Shown here in pieces: positions 28,321 through 47,321 of a DNA stretch of 64,000 nucleotides. Source of the DNA: a bacterium (lineage in GTDB: Bacteria; Patescibacteriota; CPR2; UBA1875; JAJYID01). The DNA lies in NCBI GenBank assembly GCA_030647205.1, contig JAUSJO010000002.1:11261-75260 (forward strand), given 5' to 3'. The position numbers and the translations under genes are program-made. The number at the start of each line of letters is the position of its first letter. Position 1 is the first letter of the stretch. The notes beneath the pieces are model-generated. The model was not told the DNA's origin and searched no databases. It saw only the letters and a list, made by a program, of their open reading frames with translations.

Positions 28321-29937
28321 CTACTCTTTAATAACTTTCAGAACCTCAACAATGTTGACTATTCCTTCGATTGCCTTTAGGAAACCATCTTGCTCCATAG
28401 TCAGCATGCCGTCTTTTATGGCGATTTCCTTGAGTTCGTGTAAAGTATTGTTTTCTACAACTGCTTTTTGAAAAGCAGGCGAGACACTAAGGAACTCATA
28501 AATACCGAGACGGCCTTTGTATCCAATATTATTACACTCTTTGCATCCTATACCCTGGAAGAACTCAGGTGTTTTTTCCGGTTTGTGTTCGATAGGGAGA
28601 GAGTCAATGATCTTGTTTATCTCGACCATTTCGTGATCGTTTGGCTTGTATTCCTCGATACAATGCGGGCAAATTCTTCGTACCAGACGCTGAGCGATAA
28701 TGATATTTACAGCGTCAAGAAAGGATGAAGCGTCATTCACAAGACCGATAATTCTCGGAACAGCTGTGACAGCGTCATTTGCATGCAAAGTTGTTATGAG
28801 AAGATGACCGGTGATTGCTGCCTGAAGTGCAGTTTTTGCAGTTTCGGCGTCACGTATTTCACCAAGCATTATGATGTCCGGGTCTTCACGAAGGACGGCC
28901 TTTAGTCTATCAGCGAAACCTTCCCCTTCGTTAATCTGGGACTGAGTAGCGCCGGGAAGAGTGTACTCTATAGGATCTTCTAGGGTGATAAGCTTGATTT
29001 CCGGTGCATTTAATTTGTTTAAAATAGAATAAATACTGGTTGTTTTACCAGAACCGGTTGGACCGACGACGAGGATCATCCCGTGTGGGCGAATAAGTGC
29101 AGAGTCCAGTATTGGGCGCTGAATATCACGGACGCCTAGTTTGTCCATATCCAGTAGCTCTGCCTGAACGTTGAAAAGACGGATAACGATATCGTCGCCG
29201 TAAAGTGAAGGCATAACTTCTATTCTTACACTAAGCTCGTTGTCAGAAAACTTAACCTTGAAACGGCCGTTTTGCGGATAGTTTACGTTAAGTTTCAAGC
29301 CCGAACGCAACTCTACTTGCGATCGAACGAACTTGTATTGCTCGTGGCTCAAAATGGTTGCCAAATGCAGGACACCATCAAGTCGAAACCTCAGTTTCAC
29401 GTCATCGTTTGCCGGTTCAATATGAATGTCCGATGCGCCCATTGCGAAAGCCTCTATAATAATAAACTTTAGAAGCTCTTGTATAGGTGCAGTCTTAATC
29501 TTCTCTTGAAACTCATCAAAAGATATCTCGGAAATGTCCATCTCAGAAACATCTACCTCTCCCGGTGTTTCTGCCGGCGGAAGCTGGACAATGTCTCTTA
29601 AGAGTTCCTCGTTATCCTTGAAGCTTTCAGTAGATATAATAGCAACAGACGTCTTGGGATAGGTTTTTTTGTATTTCTCCTTAAATTCATTGATCTTTTC
29701 AGACTTAGGATTAGGAGAAACAATAACGAGAGTATCTTGATCCATTTTTAATGGGATTACAGAGCACTCAAAAAAGTCCTTGTTATTAAAATTTTCAAGA
29801 ATATCTTTTTCCAGGCGTGCAGCACGTAAGTCAAAATAAGGTATGCCGAGCCTTTCAGCCTCCTCTTGGATTTTTTCTTCAAGGGCATTCCTGTTGACAA
29901 GCTTTGCCTTGGCTACGACATCTAAAGTATCACTCAT
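28321..29937 (-). CDS. pilB: type IV pilus / type II secretion assembly ATPase
   Basis: GspE_N-like N-domain. Walker A VVGPTGSGKTTS. His and Asp boxes. Tetracysteine motif CPHC...CKEC. Start taken at the MSDTLD ATG. Confidence 0.85.
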   Translation of the reverse strand: MSDTLDVVAKAKLVNRNALEEKIQEEAERLGIPYFDLRAARLEKDILENFNNKDFFECSVIPLKMDQDTLVIVSPNPKSEKINEFKEKYKKTYPKTSVAIISTESFKDNEELLRDIVQLPPAETPGEVDVSEMDISEISFDEFQEKIKTAPIQELLKFIIIEAFAMGASDIHIEPANDDVKLRFRLDGVLHLATILSHEQYKFVRSQVELRSGLKLNVNYPQNGRFKVKFSDNELSVRIEVMPSLYGDDIVIRLFNVQAELLDMDKLGVRDIQRPILDSALIRPHGMILVVGPTGSGKTTSIYSILNKLNAPEIKLITLEDPIEYTLPGATQSQINEGEGFADRLKAVLREDPDIIMLGEIRDAETAKTALQAAITGHLLITTLHANDAVTAVPRIIGLVNDASSFLDAVNIIIAQRLVRRICPHCIEEYKPNDHEMVEINKIIDSLPIEHKPEKTPEFFQGIGCKECNNIGYKGRLGIYEFLSVSPAFQKAVVENNTLHELKEIAIKDGMLTMEQDGFLKAIEGIVNIVEVLKVIKE

Positions 29938-29961
29938 AGCTTGTATGATAGCATAATGTGA

Positions 29962-29990
29962 TTGAAAAAACACGAAATTTTAGCTATAAT
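29962..29990 (+). promoter_or_regulatory. sigma70-type promoter for the tandem tRNA-Ser genes
   Basis: TTGAAA-17 nt-TATAAT about 25 nt upstream of tRNA position 1. Confidence 0.5.
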
Positions 29991-30014
29991 ACATGGGTTA
30001 GAAACACATATTTT

Positions 30015-30104
30015 GGTGAGGTGGCCGAGTGGTTGAAGGCAGCAGTCTTGAAAACTGCCGTGCCGGCAACGGTACCGTGGGTTCGAATCCCACCCTCACC
30101 GCCA
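30015..30104 (+). tRNA. tRNA-Ser (anticodon TGA)
   Basis: GGTGAGG acceptor, D-arm GCC/GGC, anticodon loop CTTGAAA, long variable arm, GGTTCGAATCC T-loop, G73, encoded CCA. 90 nt. Confidence 0.85.
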
Positions 30105-30122
30105 TGATACAATTCAAATAGT

Positions 30123-30215
30123 GGAGAGGTACCCAAGTGGCTCAAGGGGCGGGTTTGCTAAACCTGTAGGTTGGGGTAACCCGGCGCGGGGGTTCGAATC
30201 CCCCCCTCTCCGCCA
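30123..30215 (+). tRNA. tRNA-Ser (anticodon GCT)
   Basis: GGAGAGG acceptor, anticodon loop TTGCTAA, long variable arm, T-loop TTCGAAT, encoded CCA. 93 nt. Confidence 0.85.
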
Positions 30216-30293
30216 GAAGAAAACAGGTCTGCATTTTTGTAGGTCTGTTTTCTTATTTGGCGGTAAGCAGTAAATCGTCAAGACATAAGTATA

Positions 30294-30322
30294 TTGTTTT
30301 TTAATTTTTTGAAAGTTATAAT
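30294..30322 (+). promoter_or_regulatory. promoter giving a leaderless/near-leaderless transcript for pilin paralog 4
   Basis: TTGTTT-17-TATAAT. The -10 ends 8 nt before the ATG at 30331, with no Shine-Dalgarno. Confidence 0.35.
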
Positions 30323-30330
30323 CTAAACAA

Positions 30331-30960
30331 ATGAAGACAAAGCTTACAAAAGTGAAAAAAGGAATGTTCCTACTTTGTGTATTTCTGCAAAGCTTGTTTA
30401 CTATCGGGGTTAGTACAGTGTATGCCCAAGGCGGTGATGTGCCGATACCAAATATTCCGCCGCCACCAAATGTGGAACTTTATAAGGTTCTTACTAATCT
30501 TGCGAATCTCATTCTTACGATCGCCGGGGCTCTGGTCGTAGTAATGGTAATAATAGGCGGAATCCGTTATATAATATCGGCAGGAAATCCGCAAATGGTC
30601 GAGGGAGCTAAGAAGACCATTATTTATGCACTTGTTGGTCTGGCGGTAATCATCCTATCAGCAGCAATACTTAATACAGTTAACTTTGTTCTAAATAAAA
30701 ATGGGGCCAGTGGTTCTACTACTGGTACTGGAACCGGCAATACTACCGGGACCGGCACACAGGCTCTCCCGGAAGACTCCTGTAGTACAGACTCGGACTG
30801 TGCATGCGGGATACACAAGATTGATAAGAATTGTTTCTTTGGCAACGAACAGTACGTTAACACCGATCCTGCACTTGCCTGTCCTGACTTTTGTTCAGGA
30901 GTAGGCGGGAACCTTACAGTTAAGTGTGTTAGCGATAAATGTGCTCAGGTTGCAAAATAA
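30331..30960 (+). CDS. VirB2-like pilin paralog 4 with Gly/Thr linker and C-terminal 8-Cys domain
   Basis: Signal peptide. IGGIRYIISAGNPQMVEGAKKTIIYALVGLAVIIL hairpin. GSTTGTGTGNTTGTGT linker. C-terminal Cys-rich knot (CSTDSDCACG...CPDFC...CVSDKC). Confidence 0.5.
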   Translation: MKTKLTKVKKGMFLLCVFLQSLFTIGVSTVYAQGGDVPIPNIPPPPNVELYKVLTNLANLILTIAGALVVVMVIIGGIRYIISAGNPQMVEGAKKTIIYALVGLAVIILSAAILNTVNFVLNKNGASGSTTGTGTGNTTGTGTQALPEDSCSTDSDCACGIHKIDKNCFFGNEQYVNTDPALACPDFCSGVGGNLTVKCVSDKCAQVAK

Positions 30961-32910: not shown

Positions 32911-33000
32911 GGAGAGGTCGCATAGTGGTCTAGTGCGCCGCCTTGGAAAGGCGGTATATCTGAAAGGGTATCGAGGGTTCGAATCCCTCCCTCTCCGCCA
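32911..33000 (+). tRNA. tRNA-Ser (anticodon GGA)
   Basis: GGAGAGG acceptor, anticodon stem CCGCC/GGCGG with loop TTGGAAA, long variable arm, encoded CCA. Confidence 0.85.
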
Positions 33001-33129
33001 AGAAAAGGAGCTCGATTTTTTGAGGTTCTTTTTTTGTTCGTAGCGCCTATTTTTACTTCACAAAGAGCATTTTTTAATGTATAATAACCCTTACGTAACT
33101 TGACAATCCGGGACTTTAAGGAGGTGACG

Positions 33130-34239
33130 ATGGAACCATGTGTGCCAACACAAGCTGTTGTCGAACTGACAAAACAGTGCAATCTCTGCTGTCAGCATTG
33201 CGGTTCGGGCTGTACTTCCAAGGCAGATCCGAAAGAAATGAATGTTGAGGAGTGGAAGGATTGTATCGATCAGTTAGCTGCACTGGGAACCGAGAAAGTT
33301 ATTTTCTCCGGTGGTGAGCCCACGCTAAAAGATCAGTTTGACGAGCTAATAGTTCATGTAGGAAAACGGGGGCTTAAGTACGCCTTTATTACAAATGGCT
33401 ATGAACTTCCCGATACGATTGCCTCGACCATAAGTAAGCACAGACCATATGCTGTTGGTGTAAGCATCGACGGTATGGAAGGGGTTCATAATCAGATAAG
33501 ACGCAAAAAGGATAGTTGGTCTCGAGCCCTGGAAACTATCAGGGGAGTTAAAAACCTCGGGATCCAGGTCTGCGTTGTTACTACTGTCAGCAGGCACAAT
33601 TTGTCTGAGCTGGACTTGCTTGCGGATTTTCTTTCAAAAGAAGTAGATTCGTGGCAGATTCAGTTGGCAACTCCTTTCGGGAGGATGGCCAAACGAGAAG
33701 ACGCCTTACTTAGTGAAGATGAGTTTACTGCGCTTTGTCGTAGAATAATCATTTACAGACATGTCTACCCCGAACTTAATATACAAGCGGCTGACTGCTT
33801 TGGGATGGCGCCGGCCGGCACAGTCCGGTCTGGTTTCTGGGGTGGTTGTAGTGCAGGGGTCACATCGCTTGGAATTGATGCTTGTGGTTCGATACTCCCC
33901 TGTCTTTCTTTACAGTCAGGTGCAACCTGCGGGAATCTTCGTGAGAGGAGTCTGGAGGAGATATGGAAGAACTCTGAGGGCTTTGCACTTAACCGCAGAT
34001 TTCATGAGAAAGACGCGAACGGGGGAAAGTGTGAAGGATGCGAGGAGCTAGATCTATGTAGGGGCGGCTGTGCTAGCCAATCATATGCCTACTACGGCAG
34101 GTTCCATAGTTCGCCATTTTGTTATGAAAGGACGTTTCATCTCAAACATTCGGAAGGAGGTGTTCAAGATGCAGAATATTCTCAGTGTGATCCTCAAAGA
34201 CATGGAACAGCACATTGTTCCAGTAAAGCTGCCGGGTGA
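33130..34239 (+). CDS. radical SAM enzyme with C-terminal SPASM/twitch domain
   Basis: GGAGGTGA RBS then ATG at 33130. CNLCCQHC (CxxxCxxC). GGEPTL. C-terminal auxiliary-cluster Cys motifs (CGSILPC, CxxC...C...GGC). ~50% GC. Confidence 0.75.
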   Translation: MEPCVPTQAVVELTKQCNLCCQHCGSGCTSKADPKEMNVEEWKDCIDQLAALGTEKVIFSGGEPTLKDQFDELIVHVGKRGLKYAFITNGYELPDTIASTISKHRPYAVGVSIDGMEGVHNQIRRKKDSWSRALETIRGVKNLGIQVCVVTTVSRHNLSELDLLADFLSKEVDSWQIQLATPFGRMAKREDALLSEDEFTALCRRIIIYRHVYPELNIQAADCFGMAPAGTVRSGFWGGCSAGVTSLGIDACGSILPCLSLQSGATCGNLRERSLEEIWKNSEGFALNRRFHEKDANGGKCEGCEELDLCRGGCASQSYAYYGRFHSSPFCYERTFHLKHSEGGVQDAEYSQCDPQRHGTAHCSSKAAG

Positions 34240-34657
34240 CAAGAAGCTGGTTAAGCGGGCACTTGTTGAGGTTGGCGCCAAAGCAAGCATGATTGAGATC
34301 TTGGCTTCTACTTATGGAGAGACCTTTGGCGGTCTTCACCGGAAGCTGGCCGAGAAGCTCTATGGCGAAGCCGAGATCGATCTGGTTTTCGGGGTTTTCT
34401 ACGAGGAAGACAAGATGGTCTTTGCTTTTTGTCGGGATGTTGCTGACTACAACAAAAAAACCAAGAGAGTCGAATGTAGAGATCTCGACGAGATTCTGGT
34501 TGAAAAAGTCACTCCGATCGAGGGTATTCCTGTCAGGCCGCCGATTAAGTTTCCGGGAGCGGACATGCCATCCAAGCCGCCAGGCTCTATGCCTGACGTG
34601 GTGGTGCGTTACGCTCTCGTTGAAAAACCGGAGCCGGAGGAGGCGCAAGCGTCTTAG
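34169..34657 (+). CDS. hypothetical protein co-transcribed with the radical SAM/SPASM enzyme
   Basis: AAGGAGGTG RBS. 162 aa, Pro-rich C-terminus. Overlaps the rSAM 3' end in another frame. No recognisable domain. Confidence 0.45.
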   Translation: MQNILSVILKDMEQHIVPVKLPGDKKLVKRALVEVGAKASMIEILASTYGETFGGLHRKLAEKLYGEAEIDLVFGVFYEEDKMVFAFCRDVADYNKKTKRVECRDLDEILVEKVTPIEGIPVRPPIKFPGADMPSKPPGSMPDVVVRYALVEKPEPEEAQAS

Positions 34658-34672
34658 CGCCATTCAAACACT

Positions 34673-34702
34673 AGCGGGCTTACACAATAAGCCCGCTTTT
34701 TC
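34673..34702 (+). terminator. rho-independent terminator of the rSAM operon
   Basis: AGCGGGCTT-acacaat-AAGCCCGCT then TTTTT. Confidence 0.6.
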
Positions 34703-34715
34703 TTTGTTTAAACCA

Positions 34716-34753
34716 AAAAGAAAAAAGCCCCAGTTCGGTTGAACTGGGGCTTT
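34716..34753. terminator. bidirectional terminator serving the convergent minus-strand operon
   Basis: A-run, GCCCCAGTTC-ggtt-GAACTGGGGC, then TTT. Overlaps the stop of the PurA-like gene. Confidence 0.6.
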
Positions 34754-36176
34754 ATGTATCCAGAAGGTGCAGTTTATCGTCGGATTTATTTCCGACAGAA
34801 GCGATTGCTACAGGTATTCCGAGGCCCTTATCGGACTCAAGGAACTTAAGGAATGCCTTAGCATTTGGATGAAGAGTATTTTTTTGCCTTGCTTGCGGCC
34901 ATCCCTCGAACTCTTGAAAGTCCAGAGGCTTGCACTCAAGAAGCATTTTTGTACGCTCTTCACTTTGCTTTTGTGTGATTCCGGGGAGGTGTTTAATACC
35001 GGTTATTTCCACTCGGCCATTACTGACGCAACAACTGAAGTAATGGTTGAGCTTGTCTTTTTCCTCGCCGCAATATTCATAAGAGCGACAGACCTTGAGG
35101 TTGTTCTGCCCGTCGAAACGATCAAGGCAAGTGACCGAAAGGAAAACGGGCTCACCGGATGATTTGACCGAATAACGTGATGTAATGAGGTCAAAGTAAC
35201 CGTAGCGGAAGCTGTCTTGCCAACGGTTTTGTTGGTTGTGTTCTCCAGCTTCAAGGTGTGGTAAGTTCTCGGAAGTGACAAAGGGTCCCGCTCCATGTCT
35301 TGTAGCAAAGCAGCGGGTGACACCAATGTTTACGACCGAGTCTAGGCCTCCAAGCGACTCGATTATCTTGTTAGCGGTGCTCGGTAGTACTCTCGTTTTG
35401 GTTACGTATGGAGTAAAACCGATAATCGGGTCAAGGAGGACTCCTTGGGCTCCTTCTAAAACGATCGTCTTATCTTTTGCCAATCGGTCAAAGATAATCT
35501 CGTCTGACTGAAAGGCTCCGTTAAGCGCTCCTGCGAACTCAAGATATTCCCGAAACAACTTGACCGGTGAAGTGCCTCTCAAGAACGTTTGGAATATTGA
35601 GATGACCTCTTCTGATTGGCTGGTTTCAAGGATGACTTGCGCGACCGCGAGCTTTTGCCTGTAATGTTCTTGGATCTTGGTCCAAAGAGCAGATGAAGAG
35701 GAGAGATCGCGGATAGTTAGAGATGAATCGGGCTGTTCGGTTCTATCGAATGATGCTTGCCCTACTCCCATTCCGACACTTCCGTGCTTCAGAGATCCCC
35801 GAGCTGCCTCAAGCATTTGACCAATCATGGCATGCCAAGGCGTCACTATGTAGCAGTTGGGGGAGATGGTAATTCTTGAGAGCGCATCTGAAACGCCGAT
35901 CCTTTGTAGCTGTTCGGCCTCGATTAAGAGGTTTGAGGGCTTGACTAGCATTCCTTCTGTCAGATGTGTTTTGACTCCAGGGACAAGTGTTCCTGATCCA
36001 AACTGGCTAAAGCAATGGAAGTGGCCGTTTTCTACGACATGATGAGCTGCTTGCGGCCCGCCATTATAACGGATAACAGCAGTTGCATCATATTTTTTTA
36101 CCAGCGACTCTACAGTAGTTCCTTTGCCCTCATCTCCATAACTAAGACCAAAGATGTTGTATACTCTGGCGGTCAT
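34752..36176 (-). CDS. adenylosuccinate synthetase (PurA)-family GTP-dependent ligase, divergent
   Basis: AAGGAG RBS then ATG (MTARVYNIFGLSYGDEGKGTTVE). NGGPQAAHHV in place of NGGNNAGHT. C-terminal GW...PPNAKAFLKFLE...GIPVAIASVGNKSD matches the PurA C-terminus. ~50% GC. Confidence 0.7.
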   Translation of the reverse strand: MTARVYNIFGLSYGDEGKGTTVESLVKKYDATAVIRYNGGPQAAHHVVENGHFHCFSQFGSGTLVPGVKTHLTEGMLVKPSNLLIEAEQLQRIGVSDALSRITISPNCYIVTPWHAMIGQMLEAARGSLKHGSVGMGVGQASFDRTEQPDSSLTIRDLSSSSALWTKIQEHYRQKLAVAQVILETSQSEEVISIFQTFLRGTSPVKLFREYLEFAGALNGAFQSDEIIFDRLAKDKTIVLEGAQGVLLDPIIGFTPYVTKTRVLPSTANKIIESLGGLDSVVNIGVTRCFATRHGAGPFVTSENLPHLEAGEHNQQNRWQDSFRYGYFDLITSRYSVKSSGEPVFLSVTCLDRFDGQNNLKVCRSYEYCGEEKDKLNHYFSCCVSNGRVEITGIKHLPGITQKQSEERTKMLLECKPLDFQEFEGWPQARQKNTLHPNAKAFLKFLESDKGLGIPVAIASVGNKSDDKLHLLDT

Positions 36177-37077
36177 GGTGGCTCCTTGACTCGTAGTGCT
36201 CGATAAGGCTGATAGCTTCACCAAAAGCATAACGGTCCCTGCAGATCCAGTCGCTTAGCATGAATCTGCTGTAGCCCATTAGATGGAGAAGGTGAAAATC
36301 CGAAATGTCGCTAAGCGAGACTTCTTCGGAACTTTCGAGAGACGTGAGGATTCGGGAAGCTGCATAAGCAAACGGGTCGTACTGGATAATTGTTGCTTCG
36401 GCAGCGATGATATCCTCTTTTTGATTGCCCAAGTTGATATAGAGGTCGTCGCGAGCGGCCATAAGACGAACGTCATTGACGAACGGACCGTACTCTTTTA
36501 CAACAAACTCAATGCCCCGCTTGGACTCGATCTTGGCCACGATTTTCGCATCAGGATCAAGGGCCACAACTTCGCTGATGTCAGATGTTTTTTCAACGAA
36601 CGACAACATGTAGTTATGGACGCCTAACTTTTTAGCGGCCTCAATATACTGGTAGTCGCTCTCGGTCAGATATCCTTCAATCACGAGTGACGGATCGAGA
36701 ATATTGACTGCTTCACCGGCGCCAACAGGTCTTTTGGGCTCGTTCTGAAGTATCAGTTTGTTGCCGTCCACTATATCTACAATCTTGGACTTATGGTCCT
36801 TGAAGTAGAGAGTGGTTGGCAAGTTAACAGATATCTTGTGACTGAGCTCCACTGTCGTAAAGGTTGGGTCGGCCCATTTTGTGACTCGAAGCTGTCTTGA
36901 TTTTAAGTCAATCCAGAGCGGCTTTTCTCCGCAGAGGTCGACTAAGTCTTTCAAAATTTCTTCTTTATCTTTGCCTCCCGTAGGAGTGACCGTATTGAAC
37001 CGCAACGCTTCTATGGTCGGGTGAGACACGACCATCTTCCGGAAACTGATATAGGGTGAAAGGGTTGCGAGTAACAT
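36142..37077 (-). CDS. pyruvate-kinase-like / HpcH-CitE-like TIM-barrel enzyme
   Basis: GAAGGGAG RBS. IVAKIESKRGIEFV...MAARDDLYINLG...EDIIAAEATII aligns with the PK barrel (KIEnxeG...ARGDLGIEIP). Barrel only, 311 aa. Confidence 0.5.
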   Translation of the reverse strand: MLLATLSPYISFRKMVVSHPTIEALRFNTVTPTGGKDKEEILKDLVDLCGEKPLWIDLKSRQLRVTKWADPTFTTVELSHKISVNLPTTLYFKDHKSKIVDIVDGNKLILQNEPKRPVGAGEAVNILDPSLVIEGYLTESDYQYIEAAKKLGVHNYMLSFVEKTSDISEVVALDPDAKIVAKIESKRGIEFVVKEYGPFVNDVRLMAARDDLYINLGNQKEDIIAAEATIIQYDPFAYAASRILTSLESSEEVSLSDISDFHLLHLMGYSRFMLSDWICRDRYAFGEAISLIEHYESRSHHDRQSIQHLWS

Positions 37078-37139
37078 CGCGTGCTCCCTTCGTTTTGAGG
37101 CAGGAAGCGGGCTTATGCACCCGCTTCCTGCCGATTGGT

Positions 37140-38102
37140 TTACAGCCGTTTTGTTTTTGTTTTCCGATTAGCACCAGGCTCATCAGGCAGCTGGTCGGTA
37201 GTGTCTACCTTGACCAGCGCGGTTCCGACAGCGCTAAGCGTTTCTGAGACCTCAGATATCCGCTTTGCATCCTGTCCTCTGTTTTTCATGTCGACTAGAT
37301 AGCCGGCAAGATCCCGAGAACCGCTTGTCATGGCGATTGCTCCCAGCATGACATCTACGACCGCCTTCGGATCTTGCATGATCAGTACATGGTCAGATCC
37401 TAAGAGGTCTTCCCATTGGGCGACAATCCGCTTATTTGTAGAGGAGTTGGCGTCTCCGCTATAGTGTTTGTGAATTAGGAAGACGTTTCCCTTGAACTTC
37501 TTCTTGAGCGCCGTAAAGACTTTCTTGGTGCTCACATTCTGCTTGATGGATTTCCCGAAAAGAGCACTTACATGGTTGGTCTTGACTTCTTCGTATGCTC
37601 CCTCATCGGCGAGGAAAAAGAAGTAAGGGGCTGAGTCTTCAGGAATCTTACAGAAGTGGGCATAGTAATATGCCATTAGCTCATAGGTTTCTCTGGCGCC
37701 ACCGCCACCGCCACCCTCGAGCCATATTTTGGCAAGGTCTGCATCGAGTGCAGTGCCTTCGGCGAAATCGCAAACCTGAATCGGGCAATCGTCGCCGTTA
37801 GCATCACCATTAGCGGCAAACGATATAGACAGATCGGGCAGATAGTTCTGCTGGACAATCTGGCCGAAGAACATCGGCATCTTGTCATAGATTGTGCGAG
37901 CCCAGTTACCCATAGATCCCGTTACATCAAGGTCGATGACAACCGGGTTTTTGTGGGTGCACTCGATGTGTCGACCCTTGGGCATTAGCGCGCTATCAGC
38001 GTAGTCTGAACCGACTGCGCTAGCAGAATCATCACTGAAACTGAATCCTCCGCTGCTTTTACTGCTTCGGTAAACATCACGATCATAACTTCCTCCGCCC
38101 AT
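37140..38102 (-). CDS. cytoplasmic von Willebrand factor A (vWA) domain protein
   Basis: AAGGAG RBS. MIDAS-like DLDVTGSMGN. GGGGGG loop. No signal peptide. Confidence 0.7.
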   Translation of the reverse strand: MGGGSYDRDVYRSSKSSGGFSFSDDSASAVGSDYADSALMPKGRHIECTHKNPVVIDLDVTGSMGNWARTIYDKMPMFFGQIVQQNYLPDLSISFAANGDANGDDCPIQVCDFAEGTALDADLAKIWLEGGGGGGARETYELMAYYYAHFCKIPEDSAPYFFFLADEGAYEEVKTNHVSALFGKSIKQNVSTKKVFTALKKKFKGNVFLIHKHYSGDANSSTNKRIVAQWEDLLGSDHVLIMQDPKAVVDVMLGAIAMTSGSRDLAGYLVDMKNRGQDAKRISEVSETLSAVGTALVKVDTTDQLPDEPGANRKTKTKRL

Positions 38103-38116
38103 GACAGGCTCCTTTC

Positions 38117-39217
38117 CTAGATGTGAAGCGCCTTGAAGCGCTCTTTGCCGAATACCTCCGTACGGAGGTCTACCAGTTCTTCGTGCAGTTCCCAGGCATC
38201 TCGTGGCCGCGTTTTGTAATCCGGGTCGATGAGACGTTCCAGGAACTGCGCTATCCGGTGGTCAACATGAGCAGGGATTGCTCCAGTATCTACATTGCCG
38301 CCAACCAGGTAAATCATGCACTTGCCGAGAGCGTAAATGTCGGCCGTTGGAAGTGGCTGAACTTTCTTTGCAACCTCGGGCGCGCTGTATCCGGGAGTGA
38401 CGCACTTGATATAGTCTCCATCTTTCGGATTTGAAACCGAAAACGTGAAGTCGGTCAAGAATGCGTTGTGGTCCGAGGGCCGGGCGATGATATTCCCCGG
38501 TTCGATATTTTCGTGGATTACTAGGTTTGAGTGTGCGAATCCAAGGACGCTCAGTTGGCGCTCGAAAATCCAGCACATATGCTCTGCAGGTACCCCGTCT
38601 TTATACATGGGGTTTTCCCGGAGCGCATATAAATCATAGCCGTCTATGTAGCGGAGAACTGATGCATCCTTTCCTTCTGTAGTTGTAAAGCTCTCCACCA
38701 AGGTTGGCATTGACTTATGACGTACGCTTCGAAGTATCTGTTGTTCATTTCGGATCAGGTCGTTGTCGTCTGTGTCGCTTACAACCTTGATGACAACTCG
38801 TTCAGTTGATCCATCTTCGGTATAGTCGGCAAGAAAAACATCAGCCAACGATCCGGTAGCAATTTTAGAGTATATGTCATACTCACGAGTTGCCGTCTTG
38901 ATCGTAGTTCTTGGAGTACCGGTTGTCCGAAACGACTTTCTGTCCCAGTACACACCGGTGGTGATGCTTGTTAGGGCATCAACGTAGAACTTGTTAACAA
39001 GAGAGGTAGACTCAGTAGATATATGAACCACTCTTGCTTCCTCGTTTTGGTACCTATCCGGATGACACATCTGAAGAAATTCTTTACGGAGTTTCCTTAG
39101 TGCATCTTTGGCCTCATCTTTATCTTTGTCTTCCGACAAAGGTCCGAAAAGGTCAATCGGATGTTGGCAATCTACGAGGCGTTCATAGAAGCGTTCAAGC
39201 TCGTTCACTGAAAGCAT
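38117..39217 (-). CDS. Hanks-type Ser/Thr protein kinase with N-terminal J-domain-like (HPD) segment
   Basis: N-terminus ...ALRKLRKEFLQMCHPDRY... (J-domain helix II/HPD-like). Kinase subdomains GSLADVF, VIKVV, HENIEPGNI (catalytic loop), TDFTFS (DFG-like), YSAPE. Confidence 0.65.
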   Translation of the reverse strand: MLSVNELERFYERLVDCQHPIDLFGPLSEDKDKDEAKDALRKLRKEFLQMCHPDRYQNEEARVVHISTESTSLVNKFYVDALTSITTGVYWDRKSFRTTGTPRTTIKTATREYDIYSKIATGSLADVFLADYTEDGSTERVVIKVVSDTDDNDLIRNEQQILRSVRHKSMPTLVESFTTTEGKDASVLRYIDGYDLYALRENPMYKDGVPAEHMCWIFERQLSVLGFAHSNLVIHENIEPGNIIARPSDHNAFLTDFTFSVSNPKDGDYIKCVTPGYSAPEVAKKVQPLPTADIYALGKCMIYLVGGNVDTGAIPAHVDHRIAQFLERLIDPDYKTRPRDAWELHEELVDLRTEVFGKERFKALHI

Positions 39218-39232
39218 TTTTTCACCTCACTC

Positions 39233-39892
39233 TCATGTTTTGATGATAAGATCTGCGAACTTTCTTTGGGGTTCGATGAACTCTTGATGTGCCGGCTCAA
39301 TTTGATCCCAAAAAACATCGGTTATTATGTCGGGAGAAATATTAAACATCTCCGCATCCCTGTTGATCCTTCTTTTTAGTCTCAACAGGCCCGAGGCATC
39401 AAGAAATACATATCGGCTAGGCACACCTGTTGACCGAACGATGTCGATAGCAAAAAGACCATCAACAATAATCACCTCTGATGGATTTTTGCTTACCGTT
39501 TCTTTGTGAGATCTTTTATTTCTAGTCAGATCATAGACGGGACATTCGACAGTTTTGTTCGAAACAAGTGCGAGCAAGTGTTCTTTGATCTCTGCTTCCT
39601 GATAAGAACCGGGAGAATCGAACAATGGCAAACCGCCGCTTCCGACCGGAAGTTGCGGATCACTAATGTCGCGAAAATAGTCATCGAGCATAAGTTTTGT
39701 CTGTGAGATGTTAAGTGCCGTTAAGGCCCCTACCAGTTTTTCACAGAAATAACTTTTGCCTGAGCAACTTCCTCCGGCAACAGCAACAACTAGATTTATG
39801 TTTCTTGCGATTCTTTTCGATCTGCCCTTTAATATTGTGTCTGCGATAGCATGCAGACCGTCATTGAACTCATATACAGTTGGTCCGCACAC
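39233..39892 (-). CDS. uridine kinase/phosphoribulokinase-family P-loop nucleoside kinase
   Basis: AGGAGGG RBS then GTG start. Walker A VAGGSCSGKS. LDDYF. RLKRRINRDAE (Udk-like). Confidence 0.65.
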   Translation of the reverse strand: MCGPTVYEFNDGLHAIADTILKGRSKRIARNINLVVAVAGGSCSGKSYFCEKLVGALTALNISQTKLMLDDYFRDISDPQLPVGSGGLPLFDSPGSYQEAEIKEHLLALVSNKTVECPVYDLTRNKRSHKETVSKNPSEVIIVDGLFAIDIVRSTGVPSRYVFLDASGLLRLKRRINRDAEMFNISPDIITDVFWDQIEPAHQEFIEPQRKFADLIIKT

Positions 39893-40113
39893 TGGTTTTC
39901 CCTCCTAAGATTTGACAACAAATTTATAGACTAAAAATTGTGCTGCTTTGTCAAGGGACTCAACTTAACCTCCTTTCGAAAAGAAAGTAGTCTGCCTTGG
40001 TAAGTGGACGTTAATTATAACAGGAAATATAAGGATAGGCAACCATTTAATCCTTAGGTTAAAACAAATTATTTAATCTTTTAGTTTCTTTTCAAAGGAA
40101 TATAATTAGAACG

Positions 40114-40635
40114 ATGATAAAAACACTCAAAGAAATTGATGATTTTAGGAAGAAAGGCCTCCGGCCGCAAGTGGCTGGCTGTTTTTTAAATAACAGAAAG
40201 GTTCTACTCTGTTACAAAAAAGAACATGATCTATGGCAGCTTCCCCAAGGTGGGATTAGAAATCTTGAGCTGATAGAAGATGCATTTCTCCGGGAGATGA
40301 CGGAGGAGTTGGGCCAAAGTTTTGTCAGGCAGTTTGGTGCTGACTTGAAGCCGGTTACTGAAGCCAAGGTTGAGTTTCCGCTGAAAAAACATGCGGCTAG
40401 AAACCTGGAAACAGACGCGGGAGAACCTATAACAATGAGGGGGAAAAAGTACTTCTTTTTGGCTGTTTTATCCTCAAGCGTAGAGACTCGGCCCGAAAAA
40501 ACAGAGTTTGATGATTGCAAGTGGTCTTCATATGAAGAGGCGATGAAGTCTGCCGAAAAAATTTACCAAAAAGGCAAGAAGCGTATCACGACCAAGGCGC
40601 TAAAGGAGCTAAAGTCTCTAGGGCTTATTACATAA
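40114..40635 (+). CDS. NUDIX hydrolase
   Basis: Nudix box GGIRNLELIEDAFLREMTEELG (Gx5Ex7REUxEExGU). Confidence 0.85.
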   Translation: MIKTLKEIDDFRKKGLRPQVAGCFLNNRKVLLCYKKEHDLWQLPQGGIRNLELIEDAFLREMTEELGQSFVRQFGADLKPVTEAKVEFPLKKHAARNLETDAGEPITMRGKKYFFLAVLSSSVETRPEKTEFDDCKWSSYEEAMKSAEKIYQKGKKRITTKALKELKSLGLIT

Positions 40636-44106: not shown

Positions 44107-44172
44107 CCCCGCATTCGCAGGGCAGGAGTCGAATGAGGCGCGCCCCGCGAATGCGGGGGGCGAAAAGGGTTT

Positions 44173-44429: not shown

Positions 44430-44521
44430 GGAAGGGTGCCGGAGTGGTTGAACGGGGCAGTCTCGAAAACTGTTGTCCTGCTTACGCGGGACCGAGAGTT
44501 CGAATCTCTCCCCTTCCGCCA
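44430..44521 (+). tRNA. tRNA-Ser (anticodon CGA)
   Basis: GGAAGGG acceptor, anticodon stem GCAGT/ACTGT with loop CTCGAAA, long variable arm, GAGAGTTCGAATCTCTC, G73, encoded CCA. Confidence 0.85.
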
Positions 44522-44577
44522 GATAGCTTTGAGAGGTTCGCCCTAAATCCTCAGGGCGCCCCGCGAATGCTGGGGCG

Positions 44578-44596
44578 AATCCCACCCTCTCCGCCA
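44578..44596 (+). other. orphan tRNA-like 3' end (degenerate T arm plus acceptor strand plus GCCA)
   Basis: ...TGGGGCGAATCCCACCCTCTCCGCCA parallels TGGGTTCGAATCCCACCCTCACCGCCA of tRNA-Ser(TGA), with a 1-nt deletion in the T loop. Confidence 0.4.
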
Positions 44597-44610
44597 AATG
44601 AGAAAATGTA

Positions 44611-45342
44611 ATGTTTGATACAAAACTAAAAACATCTGAATATATAAACTTAACGGTTACACACGATTGTACCCGCCGGTGCTTATTTTGTGTGGATCGT
44701 TATCGTGGAAGCGGGGAAATGGTTAGTCTTGACGCCGTCCATCGTGTAGCGGCATTTGCTTCGAGAAGAGGGATTAAGGACATACTTATTACTGGCGGGG
44801 AGCCAACTCTTCATCCCGATATAGTGGAGATTGTGAAAATAGTTAAAAAATATGGACTTCGCGTCATTATGACGACTAACTATGACCGGCCGAACGTATT
44901 TGAGAAACTTGATGGGATCGTTGATTGCTTCAATATTTCTTTCTATAATCAAGCCCTTTTGCCAAAACAAAAAGAAACAAGGTCCGATATTACTATCCAT
45001 GCATTGATTTATGATGAACAACTGGAGACACAAGAAAAACTGGATCGGTTTATTGATAGATATCATCACTACGGGCATTTGAAATTTTCAACTTTAACTC
45101 CCTGCAATGCATGGACGACCGAACACCAGCACGTCTCATACTTAGACGATCTTGAGTGTGAATGGATAGTTCTATTTAATGAGATGCTAGCCCAAGTCTA
45201 TCGTGGAGTAGTTATAAAAAGGTATGATAGGATTATTAGCAGAAACGCGTCCCAGTCTTATAAGGCTCACGTTGATGGGACTATTACTAAGTCGTGGGAC
45301 AGGGAGAGAACCTCCACTCTCTCCGCCAAGGCAAAAGTTTGA
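44611..45342 (+). CDS. small radical SAM enzyme (no SPASM domain)
   Basis: CTRRCLFC (CxxxCxxC) and GGEPTLHPD. 243 aa. Confidence 0.7.
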   Translation: MFDTKLKTSEYINLTVTHDCTRRCLFCVDRYRGSGEMVSLDAVHRVAAFASRRGIKDILITGGEPTLHPDIVEIVKIVKKYGLRVIMTTNYDRPNVFEKLDGIVDCFNISFYNQALLPKQKETRSDITIHALIYDEQLETQEKLDRFIDRYHHYGHLKFSTLTPCNAWTTEHQHVSYLDDLECEWIVLFNEMLAQVYRGVVIKRYDRIISRNASQSYKAHVDGTITKSWDRERTSTLSAKAKV

Positions 45343-45388
45343 AAAATTTTATGTTACTACCACTGTATTAAAACATTAACTAAAAAAC

Positions 45389-46264
45389 ATGCTAGAAATT
45401 TCACACGAGGAACCACAACACAACAATATCACAGATGGATCTGTTGAATCTTTCGGCGGGGAGTCCAAATTTGTAGATATTCAGCCTTCTTTAGAATCTC
45501 AGATATCTAACATTCCGGTTATTGTTGCCGGAGGTTGGTCTGAAACTCCCAAAAGCCTGCAGGATGTAGGTGAAGAAATAACTTCAAAAGGACGAAGGAC
45601 AATACTAGTTGAACATGCACGCTCCGGCGGCAAGGATAAAGACCAAACAGATTATCCGCCAGAAACACAACAAAGAGCCAATACACTGCTTGTCACCTTA
45701 GATAAACTAAATATAGATAAAGCGGATATTATAGCTCATTCAGAAGGTGCCTTAGATGCTGTGTTTGCTGCTATGCAATCGCCTGAAAGATTTAGGAGCT
45801 TGATTTTAGTGGCCCCTGCAGGGATGATAGGCGAAGATTCTATCCCGGCATTGAGCGCCAGGTTCTCAAAAAAGATCGTGAGAGGATGGACAAAAGATGC
45901 TCGTGAAAATCCTAAAGCAGCATATAGATTAAATACTGGTACGCCTCAGTATGTAGCCAAGAATCCGGTAAAAGCTATCAGAGAAATAAAGGATATTTCC
46001 AGTATAACTATTGAAGAGGCTTTAACAGATATTAAAGAGTCAGGTGTTAACGTCTCAATAATACAATCGCAATCTGATCAAGTTTTCCCTAGTGAAAGAA
46101 TCAATAAAAATGTAGTTTTAGGTGAGAATGTTGATAGACATGCCTCAGTGGTAAGTGAGGATGCGGGTCACGATGATTTAATAGTCCACCCCGAGAGATC
46201 TACTCGCGCAGCCCTCCAGATGATCGATCAATTTGAAGAGGATAGACAAGTATCCTCCGAGTAG
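45389..46264 (+). CDS. alpha/beta-hydrolase-fold esterase/lipase
   Basis: Nucleophile elbow IIAHSEGA. Predicted Asp/His further downstream. Confidence 0.55.
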   Translation: MLEISHEEPQHNNITDGSVESFGGESKFVDIQPSLESQISNIPVIVAGGWSETPKSLQDVGEEITSKGRRTILVEHARSGGKDKDQTDYPPETQQRANTLLVTLDKLNIDKADIIAHSEGALDAVFAAMQSPERFRSLILVAPAGMIGEDSIPALSARFSKKIVRGWTKDARENPKAAYRLNTGTPQYVAKNPVKAIREIKDISSITIEEALTDIKESGVNVSIIQSQSDQVFPSERINKNVVLGENVDRHASVVSEDAGHDDLIVHPERSTRAALQMIDQFEEDRQVSSE

Positions 46265-46393
46265 TCGTTTGCTAAATCCCAGGCATAAATGTTTTCTCAA
46301 TCGTATTATTTCAATATTATACGTAATTATTCAAAAGAAAAAGAGCCCGACTACTTAAGTCGGGCCCTTTGATCCCATTTAAGGGAAAAGGTA

Positions 46394-46654
46394 CTACCCC
46401 TTGCGACCGGAGGCCTTAACAAACTCGACCTGGTCTCCCTTTTTGAGGGTCTTGTTCCAGTCCGTGACCTGGTTTCCGTTCACGAAGGCGTTCGGCTTTG
46501 ACCGAAGTCTGCCACCGGCGCCCATGATCTTTGCCGCTTCCTTGAGAGTCTTGTTCGGTGCGATTTCTCTTGTGTCGCTGCCGTACCTTACTGTGGTCAT
46601 CAAGGACTCGCCCTTGTCGTCTGACCGGTAACTGTTCTCAGTTTCTGCTGACAT
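46394..46654 (-). CDS. ubiquitin-like beta-grasp protein (ThiS/MoaD/Ubl-like) with C-terminal ...GRKG
   Basis: AAGGGGGTGG RBS then ATG (MSAETEN...). C-terminal half ...FVNGNQVTDWNKTLKKGDQVEFVKASGRKG fits the ThiS/Ubl pattern. GC-rich island. Confidence 0.5.
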   Translation of the reverse strand: MSAETENSYRSDDKGESLMTTVRYGSDTREIAPNKTLKEAAKIMGAGGRLRSKPNAFVNGNQVTDWNKTLKKGDQVEFVKASGRKG

Positions 46655-47321
46655 GTTTCCACCCCCTTTCCTGAGGTAGAATTTTTCTTTGCATTTCCGG
46701 CTCGATACTGACATAAATCTCCATAGTGGGGTTACCGGAGACGATGTCGGCGTAAGCTTCTATCATGGCGAGACCAACCATTCGGTTTGTCTCCGCGATT
46801 TGGGGATGCGAGCGTGATAACGCAAGGCATCCTTGTTCGAAAGGCCCCTTGTCTGTGGGGCTTGCGATCTCGGGATGGAAGTGGGCCAACGGCGGAGTTA
46901 TCGAAACTCCATCTTTCCGCCAGAAAACCGATACATTTCCATCTTTGAGCTCATTACCTCCGGATACGAGGAGGATGTCGCTCAGGTTCCTTTCGCAATG
47001 GGTGTCCACGATATTTCTTGTCTTGTGGTTGTCCACTGCCAGAAAGACCGTGTCGCCAGGGCCAACCAGAACTCCGACATTCTCAGGAGTTATGTAGCTG
47101 GGTATCCCTGTTGCCTCTACCCCTTGGGCAGAAAGCGCGCTTGCGGTAACGATCGCCTTGTTCGCACCAACCTGAGCAAACGGCTGCCTCTCTTTGTTCT
47201 TCTTTTCGTACTTGTCTCCGTCTATGAGGATCAGCTTTGCTTCAGGATATTTCTCGATCAGATACGGCAGCATTTGGTTAGTAATGCCGCCAACACCGAC
47301 TATCTTGATGACTTCTTTCAT
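46638..47321 (-). CDS. E1-like ThiF/MoeB-family adenylyltransferase (short form)
   Basis: Rossmann IVGVGGITNQMLPYL. LAVDNHKTR (ThiF/E1 ATP-binding arginine region). Confidence 0.7.
   Translation of the reverse strand: MKEVIKIVGVGGITNQMLPYLIEKYPEAKLILIDGDKYEKKNKERQPFAQVGANKAIVTASALSAQGVEATGIPSYITPENVGVLVGPGDTVFLAVDNHKTRNIVDTHCERNLSDILLVSGGNELKDGNVSVFWRKDGVSITPPLAHFHPEIASPTDKGPFEQGCLALSRSHPQIAETNRMVGLAMIEAYADIVSGNPTMEIYVSIEPEMQRKILPQERGWKHVSRN

Follow-up and report, generated by a model that had tools for sequence, protein, structure and literature searches.

We analyzed a 64,000-nucleotide stretch of a Patescibacteria genome (contig JAUSJO010000002.1 of assembly GCA_030647205.1, positions 11,261 to 75,260 of the forward strand), which we will call the window, and focused on two overlapping plus-strand genes at positions 33130 to 34657 of it. 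The first encodes a radical SAM enzyme with a SPASM domain, and the second encodes a 162-amino-acid protein, which we will call the partner. Several independent observations make it very likely that these proteins are an enzyme and its substrate. By analogy with the spliceases, we propose that they form a divergent splicease-like pair; we put the probability of this reading at roughly 55%. The proposed chemistry, tyramine excision at R147-Y148 of the partner that would leave an alpha-keto-beta-arginine, rests on the analogy and has about an even chance of being correct. The data themselves show how the genes are built, which families the proteins belong to, that the two are strictly paired, that the partner's motif is invariant at its Tyr and is fused to some of the enzymes, and that X-Y-G/A neighbors recur among relatives; that Tyr148 is the target, what kind of chemistry takes place, and what role the pair has are our inferences.

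Spliceases are radical SAM enzymes ("X proteins") that remove a tyramine equivalent from an XYG motif, and their products are ketoamides that act as inhibitors of serine and cysteine proteases (PMC11414181, PMC11626197, PMC10533398, PMC9811515). Type I spliceases require a small PqqD-like helper, the Y protein; other types are binary and comprise the enzyme (X) and the precursor (A) without Y (PMC11414181). RhaX and RasX were characterized in Rheinheimera aquimaris strain B26 (PMC11414181, PMC11626197), and compact binary spliceases are wanted as protein-engineering tools (PMC11414181).

According to the table of open reading frames and the sequence itself, the gene for the enzyme runs from the ATG at 33130 to the TGA at 34237-34239 (369 amino acids), and the gene for the partner runs from the ATG at 34169 to the TAG at 34655-34657. 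An earlier note on this DNA, which was made from the sequence alone, had described a radical SAM enzyme with an overlapping 162-amino-acid partner; its coordinates were exact, and the overlap that it had given as about 70 nucleotides is 71 nucleotides, in another frame. Both genes have the ribosome-binding site AAGGAGGTG. The enzyme's copy is at 33118-33126; the partner's copy, which the note had also pointed out, is at 34154-34162, within the coding sequence of the enzyme and 6 nucleotides before the partner's ATG. The same ATG and ribosome-binding site are kept in L001, a contig that is 92% identical to the window, and homologues of the partner share a conserved N terminus at this start (MxNxLxLxxxDxxRH). 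Compared to L001, the ratio of nonsynonymous to synonymous substitution rates (dN/dS) is 0.09 for the enzyme and 0.14 for the partner, so these are real genes, and both are under purifying selection. The value for the partner, together with its 84 representative homologues (described below), shows that it is neither a degenerate fragment, as the note had allowed it might be, nor an antisense or shadow open reading frame.

Using the partner alone, we found 12 metagenome loci. Nine of these loci have upstream sequence, and in all nine the next gene upstream, on the same strand, is a member of the enzyme's clade; three loci start at a contig edge. Also, when loci are compared in pairs, the identities of the enzymes co-vary with those of the partners (r = 0.80, Mantel p = 2e-4). 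Both results support the reading of the two proteins as a pair of enzyme and substrate. In an all-against-all comparison of the neighbors, only the enzyme and the partner recurred, and the other apparent clusters of neighbors were antisense shadows of these two genes. The remaining neighbors vary by locus and include PurL-like proteins, patatin, S8 peptidase, PspC, and others. The neighbor comparison found no other conserved small open reading frame beside the pair, and just these two genes are conserved, with no small PqqD-like Y protein beside the enzyme in the window. One subclade of the enzyme (P0011 and P0015) has no partner. Upstream of P0011, at L085:5203-5877, is a 224-amino-acid membrane-anchored protein that contains SSYGKGGYGQYF and may be an alternative Y-G substrate.

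The earlier note had suggested that the enzyme might share a metabolite with the adjacent nucleotide-enzyme operon, so that it would act on a nucleoside-type metabolite of the neighboring PurA-like, kinase, and NUDIX genes. These genes are adjacent to the pair in a region of raised GC content beside a tRNA-Ser gene, and the same arrangement is found in L001. However, L001 is a close relative rather than an independent case: the operon of PurA-like, pyruvate-kinase-barrel, kinase, and Udk-like genes is found with the pair in just two places, the window and L001, and these are nearly the same genome segment; the pair has unrelated neighbors in all of the other loci. Furthermore, the operon is convergent to the pair, on the opposite strand, with its own terminator, and the relatives of the enzyme are peptide or protein maturases with X-Y-G/A neighbors. 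Because only the enzyme and the partner recur across loci, a metabolic link to the operon is not supported, and we consider it very improbable.

The partner belongs to a sizable family. An exhaustive HMMER search identified 84 cluster representatives, and for 45 of these the match has E ≤ 1e-10. A word-indexed protein search had returned just one homologue, and the profile version of it returned 10; the impression of an orphan gene that the word-indexed search gave was overturned by the exhaustive search. Most of the homologues are 150 to 175 amino acids long, and in a subgroup of about 275 to 376 amino acids, the whole unit is present twice. The partner has no match in Pfam, NCBIfam, or PADLOC, and 25 homologues likewise lack any Pfam or NCBIfam family. 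The cluster nearest to the partner contains only sequences from Logan assemblies, and the cluster of the enzyme includes an NCBI entry; indeed, a protein from a metagenome-assembled genome at NCBI (P0002) is 100% identical to the enzyme. Since the partner's nearest cluster is from Logan alone, its gene seems not to have been called or annotated in the public NCBI record.

In an AlphaFold2 model based on a 25-sequence alignment, residues 1 to 115 of the partner (34169-34513) form a confident alpha/beta domain, with predicted local distance difference test (pLDDT) scores above 95, and residues 120 to 162 are a disordered tail. The folded domain may be a leader-like docking domain or a carrier. 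We did not find a solved relative of this domain (the best Foldseek hit had E = 0.43, and a profile search against PDB sequences was empty). The note had considered that the partner might contain an RRE or PqqD-like domain, but fold, profile, and family searches turned up neither, and no family match to a Nif11 or NHLP leader domain was found. Within the folded domain, at residues 72 to 76 or so (34382-34396), is a conserved x-Y-G-[VIL] element in a beta strand. Its G75 is invariant, but the window and the closest relatives have Phe in place of its Tyr, so the element probably has a structural role, as opposed to being another site of modification.

The folded domain is followed by a poorly conserved, disordered, Pro-rich linker (34514-34597), which varies across the family except for a conserved P-x-x-P-G-G element (P-x-x-P-G-[GS] if the window's PPGS, at 34577-34588, is included). 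Next comes the putative core motif, VVVRYALVEKP (34598-34630), with R147, Y148, and A149; the TAC codon of Tyr148 is at 34610-34612. Across the family, the motif is Φ-[RK]-Y-[SA]-[LIV]-x-[EG]-[KP], and 80 of 89 sequences end in it; most of the remainder are truncated. The Tyr is invariant (80/80). The preceding position is Arg in 51 sequences and Lys in 17 (85% together), and in the other 15% or so it is Ser, Leu, Met, Glu, or Val; position -2 is Ile, Met, or Phe. After the Tyr, position +1 is Ser (40), Ala (38), Gly (1), or Cys (1), position +2 is Leu, Ile, or Val, position +4 is Gly, Glu, or Asp, and position +5 is Lys or Pro. A median of 8 residues follow the Tyr. Y-G is found in the partner at locus L094 as well as in the fused enzymes that are described below. 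In partners with two domains, a separate copy of the motif comes after each of them. The note had reported no precursor peptide near the enzyme, but the partner itself seems to fill that place: its disordered C-terminal tail carries the likely core motif, the Tyr of which is invariant.

Some homologues of the enzyme carry the motif themselves. P0055, P0057, and P0062 (429 to 447 amino acids, with 57 to 60% mutual identity) have a tail beyond the SPASM domain that contains two or three copies of Φ-K-Y-G-L-P-[ED] (KYGLPE, for instance), and P0069 and P0079 have one fused copy (RVLKYGSIDP). At the loci of these motif-fused enzymes, we found no gene for the partner's N-terminal domain. The enzyme and the motif go together, whether the motif sits on a separate docking protein or is fused to the enzyme directly. 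This is the best evidence that we have for reading the motif as the substrate and the N-terminal domain as the part that recruits it. More broadly, the combination of a folded domain with a disordered tail, the invariant Tyr, the duplicated units, and the enzyme-motif fusions all support the partner's being a substrate.

We also considered whether the partner might be an accessory to the enzyme (a recognition element, activator, or chaperone), with the true substrate encoded elsewhere. The N-terminal domain is well folded and is more conserved than leader peptides typically are, no release protease is linked to the pair, and type I spliceases need a small helper, the Y protein (PMC11414181). 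Yet the most conserved single residue of the partner is in the disordered tail, the fused enzymes retain the tail motif alone, and the tandem partners duplicate the domain and the tail together. Moreover, the partner does not resemble PqqD or an RRE in fold or sequence, and no other conserved small open reading frame is available as the substrate. An accessory role is therefore unlikely.

Turning to the enzyme, it matches Pfam's Radical_SAM (PF04055, E = 2.8e-21) and SPASM (PF13186, E = 5.6e-9) models, which along with its cysteines place it in the SPASM subgroup of the radical SAM superfamily, as the note had proposed; it is of the peptide- or protein-modifying type. The CxxxCxxC motif (C17, C21, and C24; 33178-33201) binds the [4Fe-4S] cluster that cleaves S-adenosylmethionine (SAM); in the family alignment, C24 is invariant, and the conservation of C17 and C21 is 90% or higher. 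In the SPASM region (33847-34122), seven cysteines (C240, C258, C301, C304, C310, C314, and C331), which serve the auxiliary Fe-S clusters, are invariant. We found about 90 relatives of the enzyme at 40 to 60% identity; both of those with an informative organism name are from Patescibacteria. Homologues of the enzyme are 337 to 350 amino acids long and end near residues 336 to 345 of the window's protein (alignment A1).

The enzyme scores far below the cutoff of every NCBIfam family, and we rejected several specific identities for it. It is not the housekeeping enzyme anSME (74.6 bits versus a cutoff of 349, and a match to anSME in PDB at only E = 1e-7), and a model for QueE, the other housekeeping family named in the earlier note, is not among the best 25 of its 87 NCBIfam matches. 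PqqE (124.6 bits versus 381) and MftC (122.6 bits versus 265) were rejected as well, and their cognate proteins, PqqA and PqqD or MftA and MftB, are not present. Nor is it a viperin: it scores 68.8 bits against NCBIfam's viperin model (cutoff 180), the pVip match from PADLOC covers just the radical SAM core (residues 13 to 204), and it has a SPASM domain. The closest match in PDB is SkfB, which covers just the N-terminal half (E = 5e-19), followed by PqqE (E = 1.5e-14), and the PDB search did not find a solved structure that is close to the enzyme.

The best NCBIfam match of the enzyme is TIGR04103, which corresponds to the splicease family. An enzyme from Nostoc scores 802 bits against this model (the cutoff is 725), and the homologue of RhaX and RasX from Rheinheimera aquimaris (locus L044, strain KCTC 12840) scores 626 bits. 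Searching the literature for TIGR04103 gave no match.

We also scanned genome contigs with the pattern CNLxCxHCGS, which proved to be too generic. The matches listed are relatives at 30 to 38% identity, and none of them belong to the clade from the Candidate Phyla Radiation (CPR, that is, Patescibacteria) that includes the window's enzyme. Among these matches, the neighboring proteins often contain a Tyr followed by Gly or Ala: PGxxY[GA]SISPxDF after a transmembrane helix in Thorarchaeota, one to three repeats of GPPGYPGxxYGT[IV]SxxDF in Thermoplasmatota, PPxYGVYK in Helarchaeota, YG[VA]FTKRR in Hodarchaeota, SKYGGVSIRDF in Syntrophus, and IAYGAGD in Clostridium. In Cyanobacteria (at least 24 loci), the precursors are Nif11-like, with xYG in both of the examples that we read. 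At least 21 of the cyanobacterial loci also have a conserved small neighboring gene, which among the matches listed is limited to Cyanobacteria and is probably the Y protein. The best plasmid-borne relatives are from Aureibacter, with three DUF1843 peptides (L-Y-A-A, M-Y-A-A, and P-Y-G-A), and from Ralstonia, with two proteins of about 200 amino acids (L-Y-G-P and M-Y-A-V). In both sets, then, some of the paralogous precursors have Gly after the Tyr and others have Ala. Many archaeal precursors share another conserved element, G-Y-P-[FGY], which precedes the Y-G by a few residues (such as GPPGYPGSFYGT; loci L002, L003, L008, and L037, from archaea and Elusimicrobiota), and loci L005, L010, L014, and L015 have the G-Y-P-F type only.

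The archaeal and bacterial enzymes with X-Y-G/A neighbors (from Thorarchaeota, Thermoplasmatota, Helarchaeota, Elusimicrobiota, Syntrophus, Aureibacter, and Ralstonia) are 34 to 38% identical to the window's enzyme. Their neighbors end in P-G-x-x-Y-[GA]-[ST]-[IV]-..-[DE], which is similar to the CPR pattern of P-G-G-x-x-[RK]-Y-[SA]-[LI]-x-[ED]. In contrast to the partner, these precursors come with a transmembrane helix or with short leaders, and the CPR N-terminal domain is absent from all of them. We did not find any characterization of these genes in the literature.

We also built a neighbor-joining tree of 74 sequences, with PqqE, MftC, NirJ, TIGR04053, and TIGR04347 as the named outgroups. 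The CPR clade, the spliceases, and the archaeal X-Y-G groups come together, apart from the outgroups, with 79% bootstrap support. The CPR clade itself has 73% support, and the TIGR04103-like spliceases have 100%. The analogy to spliceases draws on the X-Y-G/A neighbors of the enzyme's relatives, on the best match to TIGR04103, and on this grouping, which leaves the CPR clade outside the splicease clade itself.

Known spliceotide systems, namely PlpX(Y)/PlpA, PcpXY/PcpA, and the binary RhaX/RhaA and RasX/RasA, resemble the window's pair in several ways. They encode a radical SAM enzyme with a SPASM domain beside the precursor; after the targeted Tyr come first a small and then a hydrophobic residue; protein-sized and multi-site precursors exist, as do binary layouts of enzyme and precursor; and the window's enzyme has its best curated match in their family and joins them in the tree against PqqE, MftC, and NirJ. 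There are also clear differences. The window's enzyme is only about 32% identical to the spliceases, with 187 bits rather than 725 against TIGR04103, and it lacks the C-terminal extension of about 80 to 130 amino acids that the cyanobacterial and Rheinheimera enzymes have. The site is R-Y-A in the window and X-Y-S/A in the family, instead of X-Y-G. The "leader" is a folded 115-amino-acid domain with no solved relative, instead of a Nif11, NHLP, or helical leader, and the pair has no Y protein, exporter, or peptidase. PqqE/PqqA and MftC/MftA are similar to the window's pair in that a SPASM enzyme is encoded with a small precursor that has a conserved Tyr near its C terminus. However, the window has no PqqD or MftB chaperone, its Tyr is not C-terminal, there is no E-x3-Y, and PqqE and MftC are outgroups in the tree.

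If the pair does function like a splicease, then the folded domain of the partner would dock on the enzyme, in the role of a leader peptide, and the tail would thread into the active site. A 5'-deoxyadenosyl radical derived from SAM would attack the invariant Tyr, and a tyramine equivalent would be excised, as PlpX, RhaX, and RasX do at X-Y-G. Arg147-Tyr148 would become a backbone alpha-keto-beta-arginine, which is a ketoamide. Alpha-keto-beta-arginine is a classical warhead against Arg- or Lys-specific proteases, so the product would be a protein-borne electrophilic warhead that is suited to inhibiting serine or cysteine proteases of this specificity.

The main rival is that the same enzyme and substrate undergo another radical reaction at or around the Tyr, such as a C-C or C-O cross-link (a cyclophane, or a ryptide-like link between Arg and Tyr), beta-hydroxylation, or epimerization. 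The result would then be either a modified protein or a peptide that is released, and not a ketoamide. SPASM enzymes catalyze many cross-links at Tyr or other aromatic residues (PqqE, MftC, and three-residue cyclophane enzymes are examples), which speaks for such a reaction. It would also suit a motif in which not only the Tyr but also the basic residue before it and the aliphatic residue at +2 are conserved, in which Ser or Ala takes the place of Gly at +1, and which goes with an enzyme whose clade lies outside the characterized spliceases and below every family cutoff. On the other hand, position -1 varies in about 15% of the sequences, which makes an obligatory link between Arg and Tyr less likely; the X-Y-G/A motifs beside relatives of the enzyme, including proven spliceases, form a continuum with the motif; and no other characterized family is closer. 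We view another Tyr-centered reaction as a real but less probable alternative.

Other observations, too, weigh against tyramine excision. First, the residue after the Tyr is Ala in the window and Ser or Ala in 78 of 80 family members, versus the Gly of the canonical XYG, and we did not find any example of splicing at XYA or XYS in the literature; the 2022 survey of splicease diversity (Scott et al., Chem) was outside this search. Second, TIGR04103 gives just 186.7 bits versus the cutoff of 725, TIGR03913 gives 169 bits and NirJ2 158 bits, and other enzymes from the CPR clade score about as well against TIGR04133, NirJ2, and TIGR03913 as they do against TIGR04103. Third, in the tree, the CPR clade falls outside the 100%-supported splicease clade, the order among the groups is not resolved, and the sampling of outgroups was small, with TIGR03913, TIGR04133, and AhbD left out. 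Fourth, in an AlphaFold2 model of the natural fusion P0057, the pLDDT of the tail is at most about 61, and there is no confident docking, so this model speaks neither for docking nor against it. Finally, the partner has no signal peptide, and no protease or exporter is conserved beside the pair in the loci that we compared.

The pair appears to be an autonomous operon that comprises a promoter, the enzyme, the partner, and a terminator, with the promoter and the terminator being predictions. The promoter-like site (TTCACA-17-TATAAT, 33057-33085, plus strand) is upstream of the enzyme's gene and was identified by its match to the consensus alone (11/12 positions). An intrinsic-terminator-like hairpin with a T-run (34673-34706, plus strand) ends the two-gene unit, and a second terminator serves the convergent minus-strand operon. 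The overlap between the genes is due to the last 33 or so residues of the enzyme (34138-34236), which are a lineage-specific extension that is not conserved (alignment A1). At other loci, the partner starts a few bases past the enzyme's stop codon or at most 16 nucleotides before it. Thus, the 71-nucleotide overlap is incidental, and the conserved feature is the tight translational coupling of the two genes.

The convergent operon (34752-40635, minus strand) encodes a PurA-like protein of 492 amino acids that is far under the cutoffs for PurA and PurZ, a pyruvate-kinase-barrel-like protein, a 320-amino-acid protein that does not belong to any family, a uridine-kinase-like protein, and a Ser/Thr kinase with PD-T4-6- or MAD6-like matches from PADLOC; a NUDIX gene is next to it on the plus strand. 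This is possibly a nucleotide-modifying or defense-type cassette, and judging by co-occurrence it is unrelated to the radical SAM pair.

The last 22 nucleotides of tRNA-Ser(gga) (32980-33001, within the tRNA region at 32911-33001) recur, with 21 of 22 matching, at 44576-44597, just after tRNA-Ser(cga) (region 44430-44597). Before this copy of the tRNA end is a 20-nucleotide repeat (44140-44159 and 44556-44575). Synteny with L001 begins exactly at 33003, and the left flank of L001 differs. The GC content is 0.46 to 0.51 at 33 to 39 kb, compared to about 0.42 nearby. This looks like an island of about 11.6 kb or a tRNA-remnant junction, and we saw no integrase. Beyond it, at 44611-47321, are a second radical SAM protein, which is small (243 amino acids, no SPASM) and is followed by an alpha/beta hydrolase, and a ThiF-like E1 enzyme (46638-47321, minus strand) that overlaps a weakly ThiS-like gene of 106 amino acids (46394-46714). 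On the other side, at 28321-30960, are a PilB-like ATPase, a pair of neighboring tRNA-Ser genes, and a type IV secretion system pilin-like (T4SS-pilin, PF18895) protein with a Cys-rich C-terminal domain; this set of genes fits a Patescibacteria-type genome.

Spliceotides are already known and are reported to be widespread. What differs here is the divergent clade of the enzyme, the X-Y-S/A site, and a domain that we think replaces the leader peptide in docking. No literature linking spliceases to Patescibacteria turned up in our search, which again did not cover the 2022 survey. If the proposed chemistry is correct, then the known range of backbone tyramine splicing would grow to include the CPR, sites of the X-Y-Ser/Ala type, and a substrate the size of a protein, with a domain that has no solved relative. 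To our knowledge, ribosomal routes to beta-amino acids and to ketoamide warheads are so far few, and splicing is one of them. A function would also be gained for the partner's family, which has at least 84 sequence clusters and no model in Pfam or NCBIfam.

A bolder and more doubtful idea is that these genes represent a widespread, unannotated two-gene class in Patescibacteria, in which a divergent splicease places an Arg- or Lys-derived alpha-ketoamide warhead in the tail of a 115-amino-acid carrier. The product would then be an encoded covalent inhibitor of Arg- or Lys-specific proteases, which possibly acts between the episymbiont and its host; or else X-Y-Ser/Ala would mark a new Tyr-directed radical reaction that is distinct from tyramine excision. 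Under tyramine excision, the basic residue before the excised Tyr predicts that trypsin-like or Arg-specific proteases would be inhibited, which would be a clue to how ultra-small episymbionts handle the proteases of their hosts or their own.

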